A stretch of 64,000 nt of DNA from NCBI GenBank assembly GCA_035477215.1, contig DATIKU010000036.1, forward strand, positions 3,265 to 67,264, written 5' to 3'. Origin of the DNA: Spirochaetota bacterium. GTDB taxonomy: Bacteria > Spirochaetota > UBA4802 > UBA5368. The notes below the pieces were generated by a model. It saw only the letters and a program-made list of their open reading frames with translations. It was not told where the DNA came from and did no database searches. Below are positions 499 to 40,567 of this stretch, piece by piece. Numbering within the stretch: the first letter of the stretch is position 1; each line of letters starts with the position of its first letter. A program made the translations under genes and the position numbers.

Positions 499-840
499 TC
501 ACCAGTTATGGACAATGCTCTCGAGGTCCGACACAAGGCGCGGAATGTCCTCTCTCACTATGTCCCACAGGATATCGAAATCCACCTGGTTGTACCCATG
601 AATAAGCCGGTTTCGGAGCGCAATTATCTGACGCCACTGAACGGCCGGATACTCGTCACGCGTCCGGTCCGAAACACGCGACGCGGCCTCCCCGATTATC
701 TCAAGGAGCCGCACAAGGGAAAGATTCAGCCAGCGTAGTTCATCGAGGTCCGAACGACTTTTCCCCTCAGCGAAGCGGAGCACCTCGCCGGCATGGTCGA
801 GCATATCGAGAATTCGAACGCGGTCTTTCTCAGGAAGCAT
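499..840 (-). CDS. hepT: HepT-type (DUF86, HEPN-fold) toxin of a HepT/MntA toxin-antitoxin pair
   Basis: 113 aa. ALRNRLIHGYNQVDFDILW contains the R-x4-H-x-Y HEPN motif. The start overlaps the upstream nucleotidyltransferase gene by 11 nt (830-840). Confidence 0.85.
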   Translation of the reverse strand: MLPEKDRVRILDMLDHAGEVLRFAEGKSRSDLDELRWLNLSLVRLLEIIGEAASRVSDRTRDEYPAVQWRQIIALRNRLIHGYNQVDFDILWDIVREDIPRLVSDLESIVHNW

Positions 841-1126
841 AGGCCGTTTCCGCTTCAGCCAGCACCCTGTCGCGAAATCGCGGATTTAAAAAACCTTCGG
901 TGTTGAGATCGACCCTGCGGCCGAGTATCCCGGAGAGTTCCATTTCGATATCGAAAAACCGAAGACCGACGCTTACTCCGGGCTCGAACTCCACCAGCAC
1001 GTCGATATCACTGTCGGCGCCGAAATCATCGCGCAGAACCGAACCGAAAAACGACAGGCGGCGGATACGGTTCCTGCGGCAGAAGTCCGCGATTTTTTCC
1101 CGCGAATAATCAATTTTCATTTTCAT
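830..1126 (-). CDS. mntA: MntA-type minimal nucleotidyltransferase antitoxin
   Basis: 98 aa. FFGSVLRDDFGADSDIDVLVEF matches the G-S-x(9-10)-D-x-D pol-beta-type NTase motif. Shows the typical antitoxin-first, overlapping gene order with hepT. Confidence 0.85.
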   Translation of the reverse strand: MKMKIDYSREKIADFCRRNRIRRLSFFGSVLRDDFGADSDIDVLVEFEPGVSVGLRFFDIEMELSGILGRRVDLNTEGFLNPRFRDRVLAEAETAYAS

Positions 1127-1243: not shown

Positions 1244-1321
1244 GAGGAAAGGCGGGAAGCCCCGGGCGACGATGACGGTCGTCGCAGGGGGCCATAATCT
1301 TCAATCTTCAATCTTCAATCT
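1244..1321. repeat. 64-bp direct repeat, copy B (right flank of the TA cassette), followed by a 3x TCAATCT tandem heptamer
   Basis: 1244-1307 matches 414-477 (2 mismatches). 1301-1321 reads TCAATCT TCAATCT TCAATCT. The repeat abuts or overlaps the stop of the anti-sigma gene (1315-1317). Confidence 0.9.
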
Positions 1322-1890
1322 TTAATCGAAATCCCCACAAATCCGTTCAGATTTTCCGACAGCAGGTACTCGCCCGGGCCAACGCGCTCGAAGACGGCAA
1401 AGCCGTCGTAGACGCGGGCCACCGTGTAGCCGCGCTTACCGATGAGGTAGTACTTCGCCGAGTCGTCGACCGCGCGGACCTCGAGGGTGGCGCCCCGTTC
1501 CGTCGCGATGACCCGAAACGGCAGTTCGCCGCGGCGCATAGGCAGACGGTAATCGGCGACGGGCGCGTCGGAGTCGCCGAGCACGTGGGCGCGCGCGCCG
1601 GAGTCCAGATAGGGGCTGGCGGCCGGACGCACGGCTCCGGAGGCGACGGCGAAGGCGACCGACGGCAGGCGGGTGGTCTCGTCCGCAGCGGTTTCGGCGA
1701 GCGCCTCCTCGTAGAGGTAATAGTCCTCGAATAAGTAGCGGCACGAGTCGCACGCGGCCATGTGGGCCATCACGCGCTCGCGCTCGGCCTCGCTTCCGAT
1801 GAGCCCCTCGGCGAAGGCCATCACCAGTTCGGACATGTCGTCGCGGCATGGGGGCGCCTCAAGGATTTTATTCAGCCGTTTTTCGTCCAT
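1315..1890 (-). CDS. Anti-sigma factor, zf-HC2 type, apparently soluble (no clear TM segment)
   Basis: 191 aa. N-terminal VMAHMAACDSCRYLF matches the H-x3-C-x2-C zinc anti-sigma motif. Starts 9 nt after the ECF sigma gene stop. The only hydrophobic stretch (LPSVAFAVASGAV) is too short and weak for a TM helix. Confidence 0.7.
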   Translation of the reverse strand: MDEKRLNKILEAPPCRDDMSELVMAFAEGLIGSEAERERVMAHMAACDSCRYLFEDYYLYEEALAETAADETTRLPSVAFAVASGAVRPAASPYLDSGARAHVLGDSDAPVADYRLPMRRGELPFRVIATERGATLEVRAVDDSAKYYLIGKRGYTVARVYDGFAVFERVGPGEYLLSENLNGFVGISIKD

Positions 1891-1899
1891 GGCGCCCTC

Positions 1900-2556
1900 C
1901 TAATCGAACCCCACGTCGGGATGGCGCCTTTTAAGCGCGGACAACACGAGCTTTCGCGCCTTCGCGTAATGCTCGGATACGGTGGACTGCCGCAGGTTCA
2001 GGGCGCGCGCCGCATCCTGCTGGGTCATGCCGTCGAGGGCGATCATCGCGAAGATAAGGGCCTGCTTTCCGGGGAGGCGCGCCGCCTCGGCCTTCACGAA
2101 CTCCAGCATATCGCGGTCCTCCAGTGCGAGCTCGAAACCCGCGCCGCGGCCGGGCCCGGAGGCCGGAAAAGACCGCCGGTCGAGCTCTTCGGCGTCGAAG
2201 CAGTGTTCGGTTTTTTCGCGGCGCGTTTTCATCGCCCGCATCTGGTCCCTAAACTCGTTGCGTGCGATTATGACAAGGTACGCGGAGAGGGGGCAGAGGC
2301 CCCGGAAGGAACGCAGACCGTCCCTGAGAATTTTTTCGAAAACCGCCTGCGTGATGTCGTCGAGATCGTGCTCGTTGAACGCGCCGTGGTAGTTGCGCCC
2401 GAGCTTGCGCACGTACGCCCGGATGATATCGTGATGCTCGGCGATGGCCTTCATCGCGTTGCGGTTGTCCGGTGGATCGATGGGATGGTCCGGTTTCATG
2501 GCGATCAGGCCGCGCTTGTTCTCATGAAACCGTACCGTGTACACGAATTCCATCAT
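1900..2556 (-). CDS. ECF-type RNA polymerase sigma-70 family factor
   Basis: 218 aa. Region 2-like DITQAVFEKILRDGLRSFRG...LSAYLVIIARNEFRDQMR and region 4 HTH LPGKQALIFAMIALDGMTQQDAARALNLRQSTVSEHYAKARKLV. The true start could be the internal Met20 (MKPDHP...). Confidence 0.8.
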   Translation of the reverse strand: MMEFVYTVRFHENKRGLIAMKPDHPIDPPDNRNAMKAIAEHHDIIRAYVRKLGRNYHGAFNEHDLDDITQAVFEKILRDGLRSFRGLCPLSAYLVIIARNEFRDQMRAMKTRREKTEHCFDAEELDRRSFPASGPGRGAGFELALEDRDMLEFVKAEAARLPGKQALIFAMIALDGMTQQDAARALNLRQSTVSEHYAKARKLVLSALKRRHPDVGFD

Positions 2557-2741
2557 CCGTCAATCCTTTTACGAAGGGCCCGCGCCGCTCATATGCTCAT
2601 CCCATGCATGGTACGACGAGGATACATGGGGAAATATCGGCAAAAAACGCGCGGTACGCGCAAAATGCTTGAATTTTACACTCGACGGGCGCAGGATAGG
2701 CGCGAACCGTTCAATCCAATAAACAGAAAGGAAGCACCCTA

Positions 2742-4352
2742 TTGATCGAGCAGAGGCCGGCGCACGCCGTCGATCCGGAACTCACAAGGCGCCTGAAGGC
2801 CGCAAAACGCAAGGAGCGCTTCAGGCTGTATTTCGACGAGGTCCGTCCGCGCATAACCGAAATACTTCGCGAGCAGGCCGGGGAGAGGGCGCGCTCGGGC
2901 CTCATCCCCCGCTACGGCAGGCTGGCGCTCACCCTGGGGCACAATCCCATCCCCTCGCTCATCGTCGCCAACGCCTTCGCGCCGCCGAAACTCGTCCTGT
3001 TCCATCCGCCGCGCCACGGCAAACTGCTTCGGGAAAGGGTGCTTCCCGCGCTCGACGGTTCCATTCCGCGCGGGGGCATTGAGACGATAGAGCTTTCCTC
3101 CGCCGACCACGACGCCAACTACGCCGCCATCCGCGGGGCCCTCGCGTCGCGCCCGTTCGACGGCCATACGTTATGCGACATCACCGGCGGCAAGAAGATA
3201 CTCTCCATGCAGCTGGGCCTCATCGCCCGCGAGCTCGGATTCGACCTGTGCTACATCGACAGCGAGTCGTACATCCCGAACTCGGACATCCCGGAGCCAG
3301 GCAGCGAATCGCTCTACATACACTCCGCCGATCGCGACGGCCTGACCTCCATCCGCATGGAAAGCGCCCCCCGCCTCACCGTCAGCCTCGTCCCGGCCAC
3401 GGGGGCCGCCGTCTTCAATTTCGACGCGGACGGCACCCCTTACAAGTTCACCCTGTCCGACCTCAGCGATTCGGTCGTGGAGACCGTGCGCGCGGAGATC
3501 GACGCCATATACGCGCGCATCAACGCCAATGTTCTGCGCGGAGAGGATTCACAGCGCGAGCTGGACGATCTCGCCGGCCTGGTACGCTCCATGCTCATGC
3601 CTCAGGGCCTGGACGAGCGGATACGGGGCGCCGCCGGAGGACTTCGACTGCACCTCGACACCGAGCTCGCCGGCATTCCCTGGGAGGTCGCGTTCAACCG
3701 GCTGTACGGAACGCCTATTCCCCTCCAGCGCATGTTCAACCGGACCATCGATTACCGCCGGCTCGAGCCGACCACGCAGAAAAAGGAGGGGGCGCTCGTG
3801 ATTCTGGGCTCCGCCGAGGGCATACCGCTCTTCGGCGAGATCGCCGACTGGCTCGGGGCCTACTCCCTGCGCTCCCCCGTCAAGATACGGACCGCCGTCG
3901 CCGAGTCCCGCGGCGCGCTCCAGAAGGAGCTCGGCACGCGCCGCTACGACGCCGTGCTGTATTTCGGCCACTCGGAGTACGGCCCGTCTGAGGAGGAGAC
4001 CGGTTGGCGCTGCGTAAACGGCGAGATTTTCCATTGTGGGAGCCTCCGCTGCATAGAGAACACGCCGCCCGACCTCATCATCTCCAACTCCTGCCACAGT
4101 GCGCGTTCCATGCCCTTCGCGGCGCACTCCTTCGCCTGCAGCGCCATGCGCGCCGGGGTGCGCACCTACATCGGCACGCGCTGGCTGCTCGAGTTCGAGC
4201 GCAGCCGCGCGTTCCTGGAGGCCGTCACCGACGCCATGCTGGTCCCCAGAGTGTCCCCGGCGCGGGCGTTCGCGCGGGCCCTGGCGGCGCTCGCCGAACG
4301 CTTCGGCGGGCGCGACATCGCGCTGTACAATTACGTATACTACGGGAAGTGA
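2742..4352 (+). CDS. Fusion protein: N-terminal CARF-like (Card1/Can2 DUF1887-like) sensor domain plus C-terminal CHAT (caspase-fold) protease domain
   Basis: 536 aa. TTG start at 2742 with GAAAGGAAG 7 nt upstream. LCDITGGKKILSMQLGLIARELGFDLCYID (nt 3174-) resembles the CARF x-TGG-x-K loop. The CHAT-like part has LRLHLDTELAGIPWEVAF, AVLYFGHSEYG (His410, nt 3969-3971) and DLIISNSCHSA (Cys451, nt 4092-4094). The ORF itself is very likely real; the domain calls come from motif memory only. Confidence 0.65.
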   Translation: MIEQRPAHAVDPELTRRLKAAKRKERFRLYFDEVRPRITEILREQAGERARSGLIPRYGRLALTLGHNPIPSLIVANAFAPPKLVLFHPPRHGKLLRERVLPALDGSIPRGGIETIELSSADHDANYAAIRGALASRPFDGHTLCDITGGKKILSMQLGLIARELGFDLCYIDSESYIPNSDIPEPGSESLYIHSADRDGLTSIRMESAPRLTVSLVPATGAAVFNFDADGTPYKFTLSDLSDSVVETVRAEIDAIYARINANVLRGEDSQRELDDLAGLVRSMLMPQGLDERIRGAAGGLRLHLDTELAGIPWEVAFNRLYGTPIPLQRMFNRTIDYRRLEPTTQKKEGALVILGSAEGIPLFGEIADWLGAYSLRSPVKIRTAVAESRGALQKELGTRRYDAVLYFGHSEYGPSEEETGWRCVNGEIFHCGSLRCIENTPPDLIISNSCHSARSMPFAAHSFACSAMRAGVRTYIGTRWLLEFERSRAFLEAVTDAMLVPRVSPARAFARALAALAERFGGRDIALYNYVYYGK

Positions 4353-4396: not shown

Positions 4397-7300
4397 ATGA
4401 AAAAAATCCAGGCCGAAACGGCCGACCTGCTTTTCGGCCAGGTCCGCGACATCGACGCGGCCGTGTACGACGCCGCCCTCAAGCTCGACCGGTTCCGCGT
4501 AACGCTCGAGGAGCTCTTCCTGCACCTCACGCGCGACGAGCGCCTGTGCTTCGCCTCCGATCACGCCGGGCGCATGTACTTCATCTACGACACCTATAAC
4601 GCTCCGAAAGACCTCCAGAGGGAGCTTAACGCCCTGCGCGCCTACACCAATCTCTTCCATCACCCGGGGCATCCCGACCCGGACACGGAGAAGTACCTCG
4701 TATGCCTGAAGACCCTGTGCGGCGCGATAGAATACTTCTCGCCGCATGGCGCGCCGAAAGCGCTCACCGAACGCTACGGCCCCGTCGCGCATATCTCCAT
4801 GAAGGGGAAAGAGACCCCGCCGAGGGAGCGGATCGAATTCCTCCGCGCCGTAGTCCGCGCGGTGAAGCGCGCGAAGCCGGCGGGCAGATCGGCGGAGAGT
4901 TTCCTGGCATGTTCCGACGGCAACGGCGACGGCCTCGGGATCTCGTTCTGGGACCACGACGGCGACGCGCCCGGGCAAAAGATAGGCGACATGGCCGACC
5001 TCGCCTGGATCCCGGCCACGGTGCACCTTTTCGACATAGAGAAGCTCTCGAAGGGCGAGCGGTTGTATTCCACCACGCGGTCTTCCATGGTGGTGCTCGA
5101 GCCCGACTACCTGGTCGACGCCACCGCGGTCGCGGGCTGTTTTTCAAACAGCGGGGCGAACCCGCTTGTGCACCTCCTCAACCGGTTCAGGCCCTACGAG
5201 ATACGGGAGTCCATTGTCAGGGGAACCATCGCCAACCATCTGCTGGACCGCCTGGTCGCCGACGGCAAGGCGCCCTTCGAGCGGCTCTTCGGCGAGGCGA
5301 CGGCCGAATGCGCGCTCGACATCGCCGCGCTGCTGCACGGCGACGCGGGGCCCGACCCGGCGGCGATCGATTCTCTGAAGAACTCGGCAAGGACCCACTA
5401 CGCCGTTATAAAACAATGCCTGCAGGAATTCCGCTCCTCCCAGATCCACATCGAGCCGAGTTTCATCTCCCCGCGGTACGGCCTGCAGGGACGGCTGGAC
5501 CTCCTGGTGGAGCACGGGGGCGAACGCTGGGACGTCATCGAGCTCAAGTCGTCCGGGCGGGTCCCGGACGGCCGCGGGCCGTGGCCCAACGACGCCGCCC
5601 AGGCCCTGTGCTACGAGCTCATGCTCGACTCGACCTTCCGGGGCCGCGAGGGCGCGGGCTGTATCCTCTACTGTTCCGACGCGAGCGGAAGAACGCCGCT
5701 TCGCCATGTTGAAAGCAAAACGTCCAGCCGCCAGAACGCGCTCATGGTGCGCAACCGCATCGTGTCCCTCGAGCGGCGGCTCGCTTCCGGCGACACGTCG
5801 GTGCTCCACTCCATCCGCCCGGACGCCTTCGCCGGCATGCCGGGATATGTGCGCGAGTGGGCCGGGGAATTTCACCGCGCCCTCGCATCGACCGCGCCGC
5901 TGGAGCGCGCCTGGTTTTCCGCCTTCGCCTCGTTCGTCGCGCGCGAGCAGTGGACGGCGAAGCTCGGCGCGGCCTCCCGCGCCGGAAGCGCCGGCCACGC
6001 GGCGCTCTGGAACGCGAGCGTCGACCAGAAACAGCAGTCCTATTCCATACTGCACTACCTCGAGATTGAGCCTAAAAAGTGTGATTTCGAAAAATTTCAC
6101 CTAACCTTCAAGCGCAGCCTCTACACCGACAGGGAGACCGGCTTCCGCACGGGCGATATCTGCCTTCTCTATCCCGTGGAGAAACAGGGCGAGTCCAGGC
6201 CATGGGAGCGGACCGTGCTCAAGGGGACGATCCGCGAGCTGTCGCCCGACCTCGTGACGGTGGCCCTGCGAAACAGGAACGCCGACCGGCGCTACCTGAA
6301 ACAGTTTCCCTACTGGTCACTCGAGCGCGACCTCATGGAGTCCGGCTTCAACGACCTCTACCGCGCGCTCTACGCCTTCCTCTGCGCCCCGGCCGAAACG
6401 CGCGGCCTCATCCTCGGCCTCTCTCGCCCGCGCTTCGAGGAAACCTGTCCCGTGCCGCTCGACTACGACGGCGGCGACGGCGCCGTGGCCGACGCGCTCG
6501 GGCGCGCGCTCTCTTCGCGCGACTATTATCTCGTACAGGGCCCGCCCGGCACCGGCAAGACCTCCATCGCGCTGAAGGAGATCGTGCGACACCTGCACCG
6601 CGGAACGTCCGAAAACCTCATGATAATCGCCTTCACCAACCGCGCCGTGGACGAGATCTGCGACAACCTCGCCGAGGCATCCATACCCTTCATCCGCCTC
6701 GGGCGCGACGCGGGGAACGCGCAGAAGAGCATGCAGTCGCTCAGTGATGAAATGGGCCCCGCCGAGCTCTATGGGCGCCTGCGCGCCGAGCGCGTCTTCG
6801 TCTCGACCGCGGCCTCGGCCCAGCGCGCGCCGGCGCTCTTCCGCATAAAGCGCTTCCGCACGCTCATCGTGGACGAAGCCTCGCAGCTCACCGAGCCCGC
6901 CCTTGCAGGCCTTTTAACGCGCTTCGAGCGCTTCATATTGATCGGCGACGAGAAACAGCTTCCGGCAGTGGTGACCCAGGCCGAGGAACACTGCGTGGTG
7001 GACGACACGAAGCTTCGCGACATCGGCCTGGCCTCGCTTTCGGGCTCGCTCTTCGAGCGGCTGGTGCGAAACGCCGCGGCCAGGGGCTGGAGTGAGGCGC
7101 ACGGCATGCTCGTAACCCAGGGGCGCATGCATCGCGACATCGCCGAATTCTCCAACCGCGAGTACTACGGCGGAAGGCTCACGGAGGCCCTCGAACGGCA
7201 GACGGCCGCGCGGGGGATGTTCGATCCCGCCTCGGGCGACGTGCTCGAGCGCGCGCTCGGCTCCGCGCGCGTGGTCTTCTTTCCGTCCACGGCGGAATCC

Positions 7301-7762
7301 GGAACGCGCACCCACAGGGGAGAGGCGCGCGCGGTGCGGCGGATCGTCGAATGCGCGCTTAGCGCACTCGGCGGGGATTTTACGGTTAGGTCGCTCGGCG
7401 TCATCACCCCCTTCCGCGCCCAGATAGGCGAAATCCGAAGGGAGATCGCCGAAATCGATTCGCCGCTCGACCTCGACGCGCTCGTCACCGTCGACACCGT
7501 CGAGCGCTTCCAGGGGAGCCAGCGCGACATCATCGTGGTCTCGTTCGCCCTCAACCATCCCGGTAGGATCGCCCAGGCCCAATCGCTCTCCCCCGACGGC
7601 GCGGTGGACCGCAAGCTCAACGTCACCCTTACGCGCGCCCGCGAGCACCTGGTGCTGCTGGGATGCCCAGGGGTGCTCGAGAAGGCGCCGCAGTATGCAA
7701 AACTGCTGGAGCACGTCCGGAAGCTGGGCGGGCACCTGGACCCAGGCCCGTTATTCCGTTAG
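4397..7762 (+). CDS. Dna2-like nuclease-helicase: Cas4/RecB-type PD-(D/E)xK nuclease domain plus SF1B (Upf1/Dna2-like, AAA_11/AAA_12) helicase
   Basis: 1121 aa from ATG 4397 (GAGGA 8 nt upstream). The track ORF from 4004 is an out-of-context extension. Nuclease motifs: GLQGRLDLLVEHGGERWDVIELKSS ... QALCYELML (D368, E382, K384). Helicase motifs: GPPGTGKTS (nt 6539-6565), FTNRAVDEI, LIVDEASQLTEP, LIGDEKQLPAVV, TQGRMHRDIAEFSNREYYGGRL, GVITPFRAQ, VERFQGSQRDIIVVS, LNVTLTRAREHLVLLG. Confidence 0.85.
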   Translation: MKKIQAETADLLFGQVRDIDAAVYDAALKLDRFRVTLEELFLHLTRDERLCFASDHAGRMYFIYDTYNAPKDLQRELNALRAYTNLFHHPGHPDPDTEKYLVCLKTLCGAIEYFSPHGAPKALTERYGPVAHISMKGKETPPRERIEFLRAVVRAVKRAKPAGRSAESFLACSDGNGDGLGISFWDHDGDAPGQKIGDMADLAWIPATVHLFDIEKLSKGERLYSTTRSSMVVLEPDYLVDATAVAGCFSNSGANPLVHLLNRFRPYEIRESIVRGTIANHLLDRLVADGKAPFERLFGEATAECALDIAALLHGDAGPDPAAIDSLKNSARTHYAVIKQCLQEFRSSQIHIEPSFISPRYGLQGRLDLLVEHGGERWDVIELKSSGRVPDGRGPWPNDAAQALCYELMLDSTFRGREGAGCILYCSDASGRTPLRHVESKTSSRQNALMVRNRIVSLERRLASGDTSVLHSIRPDAFAGMPGYVREWAGEFHRALASTAPLERAWFSAFASFVAREQWTAKLGAASRAGSAGHAALWNASVDQKQQSYSILHYLEIEPKKCDFEKFHLTFKRSLYTDRETGFRTGDICLLYPVEKQGESRPWERTVLKGTIRELSPDLVTVALRNRNADRRYLKQFPYWSLERDLMESGFNDLYRALYAFLCAPAETRGLILGLSRPRFEETCPVPLDYDGGDGAVADALGRALSSRDYYLVQGPPGTGKTSIALKEIVRHLHRGTSENLMIIAFTNRAVDEICDNLAEASIPFIRLGRDAGNAQKSMQSLSDEMGPAELYGRLRAERVFVSTAASAQRAPALFRIKRFRTLIVDEASQLTEPALAGLLTRFERFILIGDEKQLPAVVTQAEEHCVVDDTKLRDIGLASLSGSLFERLVRNAAARGWSEAHGMLVTQGRMHRDIAEFSNREYYGGRLTEALERQTAARGMFDPASGDVLERALGSARVVFFPSTAESGTRTHRGEARAVRRIVECALSALGGDFTVRSLGVITPFRAQIGEIRREIAEIDSPLDLDALVTVDTVERFQGSQRDIIVVSFALNHPGRIAQAQSLSPDGAVDRKLNVTLTRAREHLVLLGCPGVLEKAPQYAKLLEHVRKLGGHLDPGPLFR

Positions 7763-8508
7763 GCGGTCTTGCTTCCCGGCCTGCGGTCCGGCACCACCAG
7801 CACGGCGCTCATGCGCGAGATCCTGAACGTGCGCTCCTCCCCGCGAAGGCGGCAAAAGCCCGTCATATACGCCTCACCGCGGTACGACAGTACGCGAAGC
7901 GGCCTCACCCAGCGCCGCGTGGAGTTTAACCGCCTGTCCTCGTAATCGAACGCCACCCAATGACCGCGCTGTATGGCGATCTCGATGACGAAGGCGAGCT
8001 CCGAGGACTTCGATTCGATGGGAAAGGCCTTCGTCATGTCCGCGTCCGGCTCCGCCCCGGGCTCCGTGGCCGCCGCGCGCCGGGCCCTGCCGGAGGAAGG
8101 AGCGGGCGCCTTCCGGCTCTTCTCCCCGGCGGGCGGATGCGCACCCGACCTGGCGGCCGCCGAAACACGCACCGCAACCGCCTCCTCCTTCATCTCGCGC
8201 TCGAGGCGCTCGCGCCGCAGGGCGCGGAGCGCGAGCTCGCTTTTTACCAGCAGACGCACCAACAGACCCAGCGTAAGGTAGAGTGACGCCTCGCTCCAGG
8301 CGATAAACTCGAACTCCGGATACGTCGGAAGATATATTCCGTGCCGGTTGACCCAGTGGTCCGTCACCGCGGCGACAAGGTCGAACGCGCCTCCCGCCAC
8401 CTCGCATGCGGAGGCGTAGAGCGCGCTCCAGCCCGGAAACGCGTTTTCGACGACGCAGGCGGTGTTGAACGCCATGAAGCCTGTCAGCAGCCAGTGGCTC
8501 TTTTTCAT
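7759..8508 (-). CDS. Membrane-associated WYL-domain protein (N-terminal hydrophobic segments, coiled/low-complexity linker, C-terminal WYL)
   Basis: 249 aa. N-terminal hydrophobic stretches HWLLTGFMAFNTACVV, WSALYASACEVAGGAFDLVAAV, FIAWSEASLYLTLGLLVRLLV. C-terminus HWVAFDYEDRRLNSTRRWVRPLRVLSYRGEAYMTGFCRLRGEERTFRISRM matches the WYL-domain pattern. Its stop overlaps the helicase stop (convergent). Confidence 0.65.
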   Translation of the reverse strand: MKKSHWLLTGFMAFNTACVVENAFPGWSALYASACEVAGGAFDLVAAVTDHWVNRHGIYLPTYPEFEFIAWSEASLYLTLGLLVRLLVKSELALRALRRERLEREMKEEAVAVRVSAAARSGAHPPAGEKSRKAPAPSSGRARRAAATEPGAEPDADMTKAFPIESKSSELAFVIEIAIQRGHWVAFDYEDRRLNSTRRWVRPLRVLSYRGEAYMTGFCRLRGEERTFRISRMSAVLVVPDRRPGSKTA

Positions 8509-8538: not shown

Positions 8539-8832
8539 TCACTCCGCTTTCGGTCCTATGTACAGGTAACAGCGCGCGTCGGGATTCGATATCCGCACGG
8601 TGCAGGGCGCGCCGAACTGCGCGTGCAGTACGAACTCCTCCGTGTTGCCGCTCTCGGAACCGGCGTACAGGCGCGTGAGCGGGGCCGAGAGGCCCTGCGT
8701 CACGCGCCACTCGAAGCTGGTGACGCCGGCCAGGAGTATCGACTGTCCCATTCCCGCGCGAAGGCGGTATCCATACTCTTTCTTCAAGATGTGAATGTCG
8801 GTTGCGCCGGTAAGTATGATGTCGTGGCACAT
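8539..8832 (-). CDS. Small hypothetical protein (about 97 aa, beta-rich); start uncertain (ORF open to 8934)
   Basis: Lies between the two WYL genes on the same strand. ATG 8832 (MCHDIILTG...) has GGAGG 9 nt upstream, whereas ATG 8841 has the SD directly abutting it. I recognise no family. Confidence 0.5.
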   Translation of the reverse strand: MCHDIILTGATDIHILKKEYGYRLRAGMGQSILLAGVTSFEWRVTQGLSAPLTRLYAGSESGNTEEFVLHAQFGAPCTVRISNPDARCYLYIGPKAE

Positions 8833-9030
8833 CTCGTTCATCCTCCGTGACGCGGGGTCCGCGGGGTCCCCGAACGTAATGGTACTTGAGACGGGCGCGG
8901 CGGACCGATTATCGGTTTTTTTTCGAATGACCATGCCGCCGGCACCATTCCCTGTGCATCGCGTCCGCCATCCGGCGCGGAAGCCGTGGGCCGCCTCACG
9001 ACGACGCGCTCAACGGACGCGCGGTACTTC

Positions 9031-9127: not shown

Positions 9128-10054
9128 TCAGCGGGCGCGCCGGTACACCGAAGAGCTCTCTTTGAGCATCTGGACCATGGTCTTGCGCAGTTCGGGCGGC
9201 TCGAGGATCTCCACGTTTCTTCCGTACAGGAAGAGCTGCTTGCAGAGGAAGCGATCGTCCGAGACGGTGAAAGAGGCGCGGTAGTGGTGTTCGCCGTCGG
9301 GGCGGATGTCCGGGTCGAGAATGGAGAGGTTTTCCTCCATCGTGCCGAGGAGCTTTTCGTGGAAGCGAAGGGCCACGGCGTATTTCGGGCCGATGAACGA
9401 GCCCAGCGAATCGCGGAAGACCTCCTCTACCGGCGGGGCGTCCTCGGGGAACTCGTCGTCGAGCACGGCAAGAGCGTTGATCCGGTTGAAGATAAAGAGC
9501 GCGGTGACGTTATGCGTGAGGCTTCTGCACACCAGGTACAGGTTGTTGTTGCGGAACACCAGGTGATACGGGTGCACGCGGTAGCGCCGCGGCTCGCTCG
9601 CCGCGGCCGGGGTGTAGTCGAACTCCATCTTCTTTTTTAATAATGCGGCGAAGTAGACGCGGGCCAGCATCCACAGGCCGTCCTCCGGATGGCGCGCGAT
9701 GAGCTTACGCAGTATAATGTCGCGGCCCGTGTCCGCGGTCACGAAACCCGAATAGACCGCGGCCATGCGGAGCTGGAGCTCCTCGCCGAGCGGGATGCGG
9801 AGCCCCGTGTGCCGCTTGCCCTTTTCGGTGGCGACCTCTATTCCGAAATCGTTTACCAGGTACTTCTGGATATAGTCGCGCACGGCCTTGTCGGTGATGG
9901 GGTCGCGCGGCTCGTCCATGGAGAGCAGGTCGGCGAGGCTTCCGGCGTTCCACTGCACCGTATCCGAAGGATTCTGCAGAAGCGCCAGCACGTGCAGGCA
10001 GCGCTTGATGACGCCGAGCCGGGTTTCGGGATTGGGGATGGGAGCGTCTTTCAT
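9128..10054 (-). CDS. HTH-WYL-WCX transcriptional regulator (BrxR/CapW/PafBC-like architecture)
   Basis: 309 aa from ATG 10054 (GAGAGGAG SD upstream). N-terminal wHTH-like LGVIKRCLHVLALLQNP...LADLLS. WYL core RRYRVHPYHLVFRNNNLYLVCRSLTHNVTALFIFNRINALAVL. C-terminal extension. The track ORF start (10222) reads through a palindromic repeat. Confidence 0.75.
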   Translation of the reverse strand: MKDAPIPNPETRLGVIKRCLHVLALLQNPSDTVQWNAGSLADLLSMDEPRDPITDKAVRDYIQKYLVNDFGIEVATEKGKRHTGLRIPLGEELQLRMAAVYSGFVTADTGRDIILRKLIARHPEDGLWMLARVYFAALLKKKMEFDYTPAAASEPRRYRVHPYHLVFRNNNLYLVCRSLTHNVTALFIFNRINALAVLDDEFPEDAPPVEEVFRDSLGSFIGPKYAVALRFHEKLLGTMEENLSILDPDIRPDGEHHYRASFTVSDDRFLCKQLFLYGRNVEILEPPELRKTMVQMLKESSSVYRRAR

Positions 10055-10172
10055 TTCGGCTCCTCTCTGTTTTTGTCGCATGGTAGCGGACACCCGCGGG
10101 AAACGCAACACTTTTTGCGGCTGAACGAAATCCCTCCGGCGGAGCGGGTACATTAAATCCCAAGCGTGCGCG

Positions 10173-10289
10173 GTCATTGCGAGGAGGCCGCGGGCCGACG
10201 TGGCGATCTCAAAGGACAACACGTCGATTCATGGAGCATCCGCTATAAAGAGATTGCCACGCCCCGATGAGACAGGGGCTCGCAATGAC
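10173..10289. repeat. About 117-bp palindromic (hairpin-forming) intergenic element, copy 1
   Basis: GTCATTGCGAG (10173-10183) pairs perfectly with CTCGCAATGAC (10279-10289). The inner arms CGTGGCGATCTC / GAGATTGCCACG pair with one G-U position. Same arm sequences as 27103-27216. Confidence 0.8.
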
Positions 10290-27247: not shown

Positions 27248-27685
27248 TTACCTGACGTAAAACTCGTGAGGATAGACGCCTTCTCCAACCGCAAGATACA
27301 CAACCTCGGTCTCGCTCATGCTCCCCAGCAGATACTGCCCGAGCGAAGCGTCGCCGTTTTCGTTGATTATTCCGATCGATCCGATCAGCAAAACAACGGC
27401 CGCAGCGGCGGCGGCGAATGGAACAGGGCCGAACGGGCGCCCGGGCCATAACGCCCTGCGCTTCCCCTCACGATATTTTCGGATAATTTCGGCCGTAGGC
27501 GCCGACGCCGTTACGGTCCCTCCCGCCCGGATGAGAATGCGGCGCAGGGCCTGGATCTCGTCAAGGCGCGCGCAGCAGACGGAGCAAATGGCAAGGTGCT
27601 CCTCGATGCCGGACATCTCGACAGGGTCCGCGCACTCGCCGTCGGCATAGCGGTTGAGCAGTCTCCCGGCATTTTTACACTTCAT
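27248..27685 (-). CDS. Membrane-anchored zf-HC2 anti-sigma factor
   Basis: 145 aa. EEHLAICSVCCARL matches H-x3-C-x2-C. TM segment PFAAAAAAVVLLIGSIGII. 11-nt overlap with the upstream ECF sigma gene. Confidence 0.75.
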   Translation of the reverse strand: MKCKNAGRLLNRYADGECADPVEMSGIEEHLAICSVCCARLDEIQALRRILIRAGGTVTASAPTAEIIRKYREGKRRALWPGRPFGPVPFAAAAAAVVLLIGSIGIINENGDASLGQYLLGSMSETEVVYLAVGEGVYPHEFYVR

Positions 27686-28175
27686 GGTCCACCTCCCCCC
27701 GAATAATGGGATGCAGAATTCTTTTCAACAGTTCGCGCGCCCGGAAGAGGCGCGATTCGACCGTCCCCACGGAGCACTCGAGTACGTCAGCGATTTCGCG
27801 GTACGACCTGCCCTCGAACTCCCGTAAAATAACGACCGTACGATATTTAACCGGTAGATCCATGAGCGCGCCGCGCACCATATCCGAAACGGCCGACTTA
27901 TGCGTGAAATCGTCCGCGCCTGCGACGTCATGATAACGCTCGTCGAACGGCTCCGCCGCCCTTCTTTTGCGTTTCCTGAGCGAATCGATGCAGGTATTGA
28001 CGCCGATACGGTAGATCCACGTCGACAGATCCGCCTCACCCCTGAACGACTCCATCCTGTCGAGCAGCTTCACGAACACGTCCTGGGCAAGGTCGCAGGC
28101 CTCGTCGCGGTCGCGTACGAAAGAGAAGCAGAGGTTGTACACTCTGCCGTAATACCGTTCGACAAAATCCTTCAT
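27675..28175 (-). CDS. ECF-type sigma-70 family factor (RpoE-like)
   Basis: 166 aa from ATG 28175. An upstream in-frame Met (MRLRN.. or MESM..) is possible. ACDLAQDVFVKLL, STWIYRIGVNTCIDSLRKR, LPVKYRTVVILREFEGRSYREIADVLECSVGTVESRLFRAR. Confidence 0.8.
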   Translation of the reverse strand: MKDFVERYYGRVYNLCFSFVRDRDEACDLAQDVFVKLLDRMESFRGEADLSTWIYRIGVNTCIDSLRKRKRRAAEPFDERYHDVAGADDFTHKSAVSDMVRGALMDLPVKYRTVVILREFEGRSYREIADVLECSVGTVESRLFRARELLKRILHPIIRGEVDHEV

Positions 28176-28480
28176 CCCCCGTTCGCCGCCGAACGCGGAC
28201 ACGGGTGATGGGACGGCGTCATTCCGCAATCTCATGCTCTCCATGATACCATTTTGACGCATGGGATACACGTAATATTCCATTTTTTTCACGCCCGCCG
28301 GTCGGAGGACAAAAAAAGGACGGGGTATCTCCCGCCCTTTTTCCGTGTCCGTTATCGACGGCTTAAAGCCGGTACGCGATGCCCCCGATGTACAGCGGTT
28401 CGAATTCACCGTCCCCGAAGGCGCCGTCCGCCTCGAAGATATAGCTCGTGCCGCCCCGGCGAAGACCGAAAGCGTGTCGG

Positions 28481-28942
28481 TCATTCTGAACCCGAGAACG
28501 ACCCTGCCCTGCAGGGCCATTCTGTCGGTCCGGTCGCCCTCGCCCGGTTGACCCCCGACGAGAGCTGCACCGCGCTCACGGAGGCGCCGGGCTTGCGGCG
28601 GAACATGTTGTCGTTACCGCGCGCCACACAGCCGGAGCGGTCGATGAGCGCCCTGGTCTCGGCCGTCACCCCGGTAAAATAGGTGGGGGAGCCGATGATG
28701 ATGCCGTCCGCCGCGAGCATTTTCGCTATGCATTCGTTTACGATGTTTGTATCGATCGAACAGCGACGGTCCTTCCGCTCCCTGCACTTGCCGCAGGCCG
28801 TGCAGCCCCGGACGGGCTTTACGCCGATGTGCACAAGCTCGCATTCGATTCCCGCGGCCTCGAGAGGCTCGAACACCTTTTTGATCAATATGGACGTATT
28901 CCCCTGTTTCCTCGGACTGCCGTTAAACGCGACGACCTTCAT
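28481..28942 (-). CDS. Flavodoxin-like / NADPH-dependent FMN reductase family protein (iron-sulfur-flavoprotein-like), 3' end probably disrupted
   Basis: ATG 28942 with a GGGAG SD. MKVVAFNGSPRKQGNTS..., CTACGKC, ADGIIIGSPTYFTGVTAETRALIDR. After RRKPGASVSAV the frame becomes atypical, while another frame continues VGGQPGEGDRTDRMALQGRVVLG, which looks like the expected continuation. Confidence 0.6.
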   Translation of the reverse strand: MKVVAFNGSPRKQGNTSILIKKVFEPLEAAGIECELVHIGVKPVRGCTACGKCRERKDRRCSIDTNIVNECIAKMLAADGIIIGSPTYFTGVTAETRALIDRSGCVARGNDNMFRRKPGASVSAVQLSSGVNRARATGPTEWPCRAGSFSGSE

Positions 28943-40070: not shown

Positions 40071-40225
40071 GGTTTTCTCCGTTCACATGTATGATAACGC
40101 AGGCTGGTAAATCCCTCTCCCGGTTGGAAAGGGCGGCGGGCAGGGAGGTAAAATGAGCGGTTTTACCGGTGGAAACACCCGCATGCCAGGAGCCGTATCA
40201 CACGGATGATTCTGAAAAACCTGCG

Positions 40226-40320
40226 CCGTACCCTTTCCAACGCGGGAGGCCGCTCCGTTTCCGGTTCGACCCTGATGCCCTCGTCTCCATGGCCGGATGC
40301 CTTAGAAAATGAGGGTCGGG
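40226..40320 (-). promoter_or_regulatory. Candidate Moco-type (molybdenum/tungsten cofactor) riboswitch aptamer in the 5' leader of the TonB-dependent receptor
   Basis: The minus strand reads CCCGACCCTC...GAGGGCATCAGGGTCGAACCGGAAACGGAGCGGCCUCCCGCGUUGGAAAGGGUACGG. The GGAAACGG...GCCUCCCG-N4-GGAAAGG core matches what I recall of the E. coli moaA Moco RNA (..CGCCUCCCGUAUCUGGAAAGGUGUAC AUG). The outer helix CCGACCCU/AGGGUACGG is plausible. Confidence 0.5.
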
Positions 40321-40567
40321 ATTACGCTGGAAGTATGCTCAGACATACACCGAAAAAGTCAACCAAATATGTAATATTTTGTTATATACAGTAATATTTT
40401 TCATTTTTTAAAAATATAAATCATTATTATTACCATTATACACCAATTATCCGGGAATATATACACGTAATGTTTTGATTATCACCATATTTACTGAAAA
40501 AATCATGGAGGAGGGAGTCAACCGAGGGTGGTTGCCAAACGGGGTCTTCCAGAAGTACCATTTATTT

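Follow-up and report, generated by a model that had tools for sequence, protein, structure and literature searches.

Proteolytic release of a sigma factor is a recently recognised output of CRISPR systems of which, to our knowledge, only a few examples exist. The type III-B CalpL-CalpT-CalpS system uses three genes: a fusion of a cyclic oligoadenylate (cOA) sensor of the SAVED type with a Lon Ser/Lys protease (CalpL) cuts a soluble anti-sigma factor (CalpT, of which the large cleavage fragment is MazF-like) and an extracytoplasmic function (ECF)-type sigma factor (CalpS) is released. In the type III-E Craspase system (Cas7-11/Csx29/Csx30/CASP-sigma), the RNA-bound effector activates the protease by protein contact; Csx29 cuts Csx30 within a small, flexible loop, a deletion of Met427 blocks that cleavage, and motifs of CASP-sigma have been reported at cas1 and at other genes of the locus (PMC10028731). 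In the type III-B system of Haliangium, the direct substrate of SAVED-CHAT, whose SAVED domain senses cyclic triadenylate (cA3), is a second protease, PCaspase, which then cuts the sigma factor PCc-sigma itself; there is no anti-sigma factor (bioRxiv 10.1101/2023.06.23.546230). Lastly, DdvA of Myxococcus xanthus is a transmembrane CHCC zinc-finger anti-sigma factor fused to a periplasmic CHAT domain with an incomplete active site; it is paired with the ECF sigma factor DdvS in the control of an island that combines CBASS with a type III-B system (PMC11506125). The subject of this analysis is a group of three genes at one end of a 64-kb stretch of Spirochaetota DNA (contig DATIKU010000036.1; the whole stretch is referred to below as the window), which encode a CARF-CHAT protein, an ECF sigma factor and a soluble zinc-finger anti-sigma factor, and which probably make up an alarm switch, not described before, that uses a putative cleavage step to turn on defence genes in its vicinity.

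The CARF-CHAT gene (2742-4352, plus strand; 536 aa from a TTG start, with CARF at residues ~56-205 and CHAT at ~282-536) is parted by a divergent intergenic region of 185 bp (2557-2741) from the sigma gene (1900-2556, minus strand; 218 aa, with sigma2 and sigma4 as its only domains). The anti-sigma gene (1315-1890, minus strand; 191 aa) starts 9 nt beyond the sigma stop codon; in many relatives these stop and start codons overlap. An earlier, sequence-only reading of the window had given the same open reading frames (ORFs), the same gap and the same divergent region, and ORF calling confirms all of them. That reading had also drawn the parallel with the CalpL-CalpT-CalpS and Craspase-Csx30 logic, which the architecture of the proteins and the conservation of the trio uphold. 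We regard it as rather probable that the three genes are one signalling module of type III (mainly III-B) immunity, working as follows. The CARF domain would bind a cOA made by Cas10, most likely cyclic tetraadenylate (cA4), and ligand binding would switch on the fused CHAT protease (His410/Cys451). The protease would cut the soluble zinc-finger anti-sigma factor, most likely in an exposed loop with Leu104 after Val103, and the cut anti-sigma factor would free the ECF sigma factor, which would steer RNA polymerase to promoters that read T-rich-CCGATAT-N16-CGTCnTA. Its targets in the window would be the sigma/anti-sigma operon itself (a positive feedback) and an operon of a small ORF and a WYL gene; in relatives they would also include cas1-cas2, CARF-CHAT operons, secreted S8 proteases and other genes of the island.

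The assignment of the 536-aa protein as a CARF-CHAT protease, which had been made from the letters of the sequence, is confirmed by searches. PADLOC CARF1 models match residues 56-194 (E = 5.6e-9), and the Pfam CHAT family PF12770 matches residues 282-517 (E = 2.6e-6; 27.5 bits against a cut-off of 24). Two signatures are invariant among 15 aligned homologues that are 34-82% identical to the window protein: a CARF loop, C145-D-x-T-G-G-K-K152 (the DITGGKK signature), and a catalytic dyad of H410 (in YFGHS) and C451 (in SNSCHSARS), which is also invariant in an alignment of 17 orthologues. The best PDB sequence matches of the protein's profile are Csm6 of Thermus (TtCsm6), with K152 aligned to TtCsm6 K137, the ring nuclease Sso2081 (Crn1) and Can2. 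Foldseek, run on an AlphaFold model with a predicted local distance difference test score (pLDDT) of 84.3, matches separase (7.8e-10), Csx29/TPR-CHAT (1.4e-9), the CARF domain of TtCsm6 (1.4e-9; root-mean-square deviation 3.2-3.4 Å over ~190 columns, the cA4-bound form included) and DdvA (8rot, 2.6e-6). On the strength of these signatures, profile matches and fold matches, the protein is a Csm6-type CARF joined to a separase/Csx29-type CHAT with an intact active site; by sequence and model, it falls among the CARF-domain sensors and the clan CD, caspase-like (His-Cys dyad) peptidases. The comparison with Csm6/Csx1 ends with the homologous CARF domain: the nearest CARF relatives in the genome and metagenome scans are Csm6 proteins, and among PDB entries the best CARF match is TtCsm6, but the effector of those proteins is a HEPN RNase, whereas here it is a protease. 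No SAVED or Lon domain is matched in Pfam, PADLOC or Foldseek searches of the 536-aa protein, which combines CARF with a Cys/His CHAT where CalpL combines SAVED with a Ser/Lys Lon. Since the closest solved CARF relatives bind cA4, it is the most likely ligand, and cOA binding and activation are proposed by analogy with them; a probable cA4 ligand is a further likeness to the CalpL system.

The anti-sigma factor scores just above the Pfam cut-off for zf-HC2 (23.4 bits against 22.2; E 6.4e-5). Its motif H43-MAA-C47-DS-C50 had already been picked out and stands, with C15 to be added; the four residues are invariant in 18 orthologues and form a CHCC zinc site like that carried by DdvA (PMC11506125). 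Judged from sequence and model, the 191-aa protein has a ZAS (zf-HC2) class I anti-sigma domain. The AlphaFold2 model (pLDDT 79.5) is laid out as a four-helix N-terminal domain (3-65), a low-confidence linker, a beta-hairpin, a loop (101-106) and a C-terminal domain (111-190) that is a generic beta-sandwich. The protein had been proposed to be soluble, and its hydropathy agrees: the maximum Kyte-Doolittle score over 19 residues is 0.96, and the 18 orthologues are alike, with maxima of 0.84-1.71 at non-conserved positions, in contrast with 2.34 on PFAAAAAAVVLLIGSIGII for the other, membrane-anchored anti-sigma factor of the window (27248-27685). This lack of a membrane helix, like the separation of the anti-sigma factor from a cytoplasmic, CARF-bearing CHAT protein with an intact dyad, distinguishes the module from DdvA, with which it has in common a CHCC zinc-finger anti-sigma factor, an ECF sigma factor and the involvement of CHAT.

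Homology of the anti-sigma factor to CalpT or Csx30 was considered and rejected, since no solved structure resembles it: PDB searches yield no sequence match below E = 0.7 and no fold match below E = 0.07. A ZAS domain followed by a beta-sandwich thus takes the place that CalpT, with its MazF-like part, has in the Calp system. What the protein may share with Csx30 is the manner of its cleavage. Residues 101-106 (A-H-V-L-G-D; codons 1573-1590, minus strand) have a pLDDT below 50 in the model, yet L104 is invariant in the 18 locus-derived orthologues and position 103 holds Val in 16 of these and Leu or Met in the other two; a second set, of 22 sequences, has V103 throughout and L104 almost throughout. 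The sequence at this point follows the pattern x-[V/L/M]-L-[S/G/A/D/E]. We infer from this conservation in a low-confidence segment of the model that the V103-L104 loop is a plausible site of CHAT cleavage.

The 218-aa protein matches Pfam Sigma70_r2 and r4_2, exceeds the cut-off of the NCBIfam ECF model TIGR02937 (63.6 bits against 42.9) and retrieves RpoE (1or7) at 1.4e-14 in a PDB profile search; by these sequence matches it is an ECF (group IV) sigma-70 factor. It carries an N-terminal extension of variable length (~35-60 residues) and a variable sigma2-sigma4 linker. Between close clades the sigma factor diverges faster (43-51% identity, chiefly through its N-terminal half) than the anti-sigma factor (70-75%) or the CARF-CHAT protein (74-77%).

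Measured against Craspase, then, the locus has the same CHAT fold, a candidate flexible loop in the presumptive substrate and, in relatives as described below, ECF-type promoter motifs at cas1 and other locus genes. It differs in that the activator is proposed to be a diffusible nucleotide, that there is no TPR domain, Cas7-11, Csx30 or Csx31, and that the type III-E sigma model NF041236 gives the window sigma factor only 22.9 bits against a cut-off of 100. With the Haliangium system it shares a CHAT protease, presumably cOA-activated, that is encoded together with a sigma factor, but the window locus is without PCaspase, PCi or a kinase, has CARF rather than SAVED as its sensor and has an anti-sigma factor. 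Of the claim that this would be a third protease-to-sigma defence circuit, the logic therefore stands and the count does not, since SAVED-CHAT/PCaspase/PCc-sigma and DdvA/DdvS are also known.

Conservation of the trio was assessed on loci drawn from contigs encoding homologues, from pattern scans of one genome per species and from pattern scans of Joint Genome Institute (JGI) metagenomes, which were analysed by ORF calling, by jackhmmer with the three window proteins and by clustering of all ORFs. Merging of loci with CARF-CHAT proteins at least 95% identical left 30 CARF-CHAT lineages and, as an outgroup, three CARF-HEPN Csm6 lineages with a related CARF (individual loci are cited below by L numbers). 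Seven of the 30 are uninformative because the contig ends within ~1-2.5 kb of the CARF-CHAT gene. In the remaining 23, at 29-81% identity, a sigma factor of the same family lies near CARF-CHAT in 21 and the anti-sigma factor in 19; the sigma/anti-sigma pair is found in none of the three outgroup lineages. A survey of the neighbourhood among homologues had been proposed as a test, and the trio passes it in spite of rearrangement, for there are at least four gene arrangements among the lineages that keep it: divergent and adjacent (the window, L002, L003, L006, L030, L033), convergent with a DUF3800 protein of ~680 aa in between (L016, L021, L022, L040-L042, L056-L059), on the same strand with other genes in between (L005, L018, L039) and a tightly packed sigma/anti-sigma/CARF-CHAT operon (L020). 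At L055 the called CARF-CHAT ORF runs on across the position of the sigma gene, and a blastn comparison shows the sigma sequence to be present.

The reverse search gives a corresponding picture. An anti-sigma profile finds 24 clusters among 5.8e9 proteins, all unnamed and mostly from Spirochaetota; an exhaustive hidden Markov model search of 1.84e9 representatives finds 61 matches at E <= 1e-3, of which about 40 are full length (~190 aa); and CARF-CHAT is present in all six anti-sigma contexts that were opened. Because its family is nearly confined to CARF-CHAT loci, the anti-sigma factor looks like a dedicated partner of the protease. The pairwise identities of the three proteins correlate (r = 0.79-0.89), and in one decayed locus (L060, 5270-8451) CARF-CHAT, sigma and anti-sigma are all frameshifted fragments, so that the three genes appear to have been lost together. 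Chance adjacency in a genome rich in sigma factors (the window has a second pair, at 27248-28520) was considered and rejected, since it is specific sigma and anti-sigma families that travel with CARF-CHAT. A search of viral contigs found no CARF-CHAT relatives and so lends no support to an origin on a phage.

The link to type III CRISPR-Cas comes from the relatives. In L033 and L021 the module adjoins type III-B genes (Cas10/Cmr2, Cmr3, Cmr1 and RAMP genes), CRISPR arrays border it in L006 and L033, and Cas1-Cas2 and Cas_APE2256 proteins recur near it, together with a protein of 426 aa that is scored as Csx1 in L033. That relatives are located inside type III-B loci supports the view that the CARF domain senses a ligand.

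What the freed sigma factor might do is suggested by a promoter motif. A bipartite element, consisting of a T/A-rich tract, CCGATAT, a spacer of 16-17 nt and (C/G/T)GTCnTA, lies ahead of the sigma gene in no fewer than 12 divergent lineages, which range from very A+T-rich to the 62% G+C of the window; its consensus is the T-rich-CCGATAT-N16-CGTCnTA already given. A -10 element of the CGTC type is typical of ECF promoters. A position weight matrix trained on 12 sites upstream of sigma genes, drawn from loci other than the window, was scanned on 415 kb of CARF-CHAT loci. At scores of 20 and above it finds 46 sites, against 1-3 in shuffled sequences and none in the Csm6 outgroup loci; at 24 and above it finds 29, against none in either. 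A strict pattern likewise has 29 sites where 4.2 are expected. Recognition of the motif by the module's own sigma factor would account for this distribution. The Csm6 outgroup loci differ from CARF-CHAT loci in having neither the pair nor the motif.

The window has only two sites that score 20 or more in its 64 kb, and both are within a 9-kb island. P1 (2612-2640, minus strand; CCGATAT-N16-CGTCGTA with an upstream T-tract; score 29.4) is placed 56 nt upstream of the sigma ATG and is predicted from its sequence to be the autoregulatory promoter of the sigma operon. A T-tract hairpin at 2647-2662 (minus strand), flagged as terminator-like by a scan, is read instead as the A/T-rich element upstream of the -35 box; an element of this kind accompanies the motif in 12 of the 12 training sites, which argues that the tract is a conserved part of the promoter. 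P2 (8887-8915, minus strand; CCGATAA-N16-CGTCTCA with a T/A tract; score 22.2) lies upstream of a 100-aa ORF and a WYL gene, for which it is predicted to be a sigma-dependent operon promoter. Its -35 and -10 elements are conserved around a variable spacer in L027, L028, L007 and L055, and in the distant L016 the same motif precedes a homologous small ORF.

In relatives the motif is also found ahead of other genes. It lies just upstream of cas1-cas2 in L006 (3492-3520), L033 (5773-5801), L041 (1573-1601) and L039 (10842-10870), and weakly in L040, giving four to five lineages; this parallels the type III-E motifs and suggests an induction of spacer acquisition once the module is activated. It precedes genes for S8 subtilisins in six lineages (L006, 9469-9497; L011, 7256-7284; L004, 9498-9526; L022, 4372-4399; L039, 2108-2136; L042, 6285-6313), and it is present ahead of a Peptidase_MA-like gene in L033 and L014, a ClpB-like ATPase gene in L005 and the conserved 100-aa ORF. 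The S8 subtilisins themselves are large (~1050 aa, with fn3 repeats) and several have a small ORF just downstream, with a lipoprotein signal in L006; the L004 enzyme starts with a hydrophobic stretch resembling a signal peptide. The sequence-only reading had named a regulon of unrelated envelope-stress genes as the outcome at odds with a defence circuit; the motif marks local genes of the defence island and not general envelope-stress genes, namely those of the sigma operon itself, cas1, the CARF-CHAT operons, S8 protease genes and small uncharacterised ORFs. Strong sites are retained in L015 (33.1) and L023 (28.2), where no pair is nearby, and L012 keeps one at 27.1, just past which its contig ends; these retained sites suggest that the sigma factor is encoded elsewhere in the three genomes.

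The fuller proposition that follows from these results has, in our estimate, about as much for it as against it: an independently assembled circuit, in which cOA-activated CARF-CHAT would cut the anti-sigma factor at the Val-Leu loop and so free a sigma factor whose regulon can be read from sequence (its own operon, cas1-cas2, the protease gene, S8 proteases and small effectors), would couple interference both to the acquisition of spacers and to a further wave of defence.

Several observations weigh against protease-driven release of the sigma factor. L015 and L023 have no sigma/anti-sigma pair within 5-7 kb of CARF-CHAT. The trio is largely confined to Spirochaetota, so that part of its co-occurrence must be shared descent. 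Zinc-finger anti-sigma factors can free their sigma factors through thiol oxidation, with no protease involved. Neither cas genes nor a CRISPR array nor any other cyclic-nucleotide synthase is present in the 64-kb window (homologues of Cas10, Cmr3, Cmr1, Cas1 and Csx1 are all absent from it), and L055, a close relative located at the end of a 2-Mb contig, has no cas genes or arrays within 10 kb. Finally, in one clade (L040-L043) the motif precedes the u143b/CARF-CHAT operon, which places sigma upstream of CARF-CHAT there and allows that it may be a mere regulator of expression.

This last point fits the strongest of the competing explanations, which we consider unlikely but worth stating in full. 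The sigma/anti-sigma pair may be no more than an upstream expression switch of the island with a cue of its own, which could be thiol or redox stress perceived by the zinc finger or a phage protein perceived by the beta-sandwich, while CHAT cuts something else: host proteins, the Dna2-like nuclease-helicase described below, the DUF3800 protein or an S8 pro-enzyme. Myxococcus offers an exact precedent for regulation at the level of an island in DdvA/DdvS (PMC11506125), the ZAS motif of the anti-sigma factor is intact, and SAVED-CHAT cleaves another protease rather than an anti-sigma factor. Against this, the sigma and anti-sigma factors are the only partners kept in all clades, whereas Dna2-like, DUF3800 and S8 proteins are found in subsets, and the anti-sigma family is essentially confined to CARF-CHAT loci. 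No motif precedes CARF-CHAT in the window's own clade, and in L040-L043 its presence fits a positive feedback loop, compatible with anti-sigma cleavage, as well as it fits the expression switch.

A second alternative concerns the source genome only. There the module might be an orphan remnant, cut off from its supply of cOA and either silent or re-purposed, as the missing cas genes and arrays of the window and of the L055 flanks would have it; the decayed copy in L060 is also in keeping with such a fate. We think this improbable. The three ORFs are intact and retain all of the invariant catalytic, zinc and CARF residues, P1 and P2 are both conserved among close relatives, and the source contig extends ~15 kb beyond the window. 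CARF effectors are, moreover, often encoded away from their type III locus.

The weakest alternative, which we hold to be very improbable, is that CHAT acts on the sigma factor itself by trimming its N-terminal extension or its sigma2-sigma4 linker, in the way that PCaspase cuts PCc-sigma in the Haliangium type III-B system: the variability of both regions and the faster evolution of the sigma factor are compatible with it, but these regions have no invariant loop motif comparable with L104 of the anti-sigma factor, and the dedicated extra domain of the anti-sigma factor and the exclusivity of its family would be left unexplained.

A search of the literature brought up only the known systems and no description of a CARF-CHAT fusion, though it did not cover the CARF classification of Makarova et al. 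(2020), in which an earlier entry is possible; SAVED-CHAT and CalpL are among the type III effectors surveyed in 2024, and CARF-CHAT is not (PMC11229360). If cleavage of the anti-sigma factor by CARF-CHAT is borne out, then CARF-CHAT would be a new effector family, and the same logic would have been rebuilt from different parts, with CARF in place of SAVED or direct contact, CHAT in place of Lon and ZAS in place of CalpT or Csx30. Convergent rewiring of that kind would mark transcriptional reprogramming as a recurrent, selected output of type III signalling. The sharpness of the motif would allow the targets of the sigma factor to be predicted, cas1 among them, making the connection between interference and adaptation testable, and a caspase-like protease that is sequence-specific, gated by a small molecule and paired with a compact substrate of 191 aa might find use as a tool.

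The remaining genes of the island and its counterparts add possible components. A gene for a Dna2/Cas4-like nuclease fused to an SF1 helicase (4397-7762, plus strand; Pfam AAA_11/AAA_12/Dna2, PADLOC MkoA at 1e-54 and Cas4) begins 44 nt downstream of CARF-CHAT, probably in one operon with it, and is also called in L001. The same MkoA-like, PLuB-helicase-like protein recurs beside CARF-CHAT in a clade at only ~30% identity (L040, 1915-5355; L042, 12083-15544; L057, 14880-18320; L061, 14835-18254), and in three of these four loci (L040, L057, L061) its gene has cas1-cas2 on one side and the protease gene on the other; the protein may belong to the module as an additional component. Downstream of P2 come the conserved 100-aa protein (8539-8841, minus strand), which has a HILKK motif in an alignment of homologues and no Pfam or NCBIfam match, and a 249-aa WYL-domain protein (7759-8508, minus strand; Pfam WYL 4.8e-14, PADLOC WYL 1.4e-14). 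At the island's edge is a WYL-WCX protein (9128-10222, minus strand; Pfam WYL and WCX) with the architecture of CapW/BrxR-like regulators, which is kept in close relatives. Across the lineages, S8 peptidase, Dna2-like helicase, Cas1-Cas2, Csx1, Cas_APE2256, GAF-HD and WYL proteins are each neighbours of the module in a subset.

The DUF3800 protein that separates CARF-CHAT from the anti-sigma gene in the convergent loci (for example L022, 6202-8286) is similarly wedged between them in L043 and L061, and it adjoins CARF-CHAT in L012 and L015; it is an alternative candidate for substrate or effector. A GAF-HD (HD_5) protein is encoded directly upstream of sigma in L021 (15047-17107), L022 (9656-11713), L040 (11262-13316) and L056, L057 and L061, and in the last three a protein that binds cyclic nucleoside monophosphates adjoins it; these two proteins are possibly extra nucleotide-signal inputs or turnover enzymes.

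A block at 2638-2817, which spans the upstream region of CARF-CHAT and its first 25 codons and has its left edge exactly at the -35 element of P1, is 97-100% identical to the relative L026, whose flanks are ~50-80% identical. A structured RNA was rejected as the explanation (fold z = -0.10); possible readings of the block are a tract of recombination and a regulatory region that binds protein. On the other side of the module, a tandem repeat of 4.6 units of GATTGAA (1296-1327, minus strand) starts within the anti-sigma stop codon and has a TGA in every unit, and a HepT/MNT toxin-antitoxin pair (DUF86 and nucleotidyltransferase; 499-1126, minus strand) lies directly downstream of the anti-sigma gene. 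Farther off, the second ECF sigma factor of the window (27675-28520, minus strand), unrelated to that of the module, and its membrane-anchored zf-HC2 anti-sigma factor (27248-27685, minus strand) are an ordinary envelope-type pair. A molybdenum-cofactor riboswitch (Rfam RF01055, 58.2 bits), likewise unrelated to the module, is located at 40214-40332 on the minus strand.

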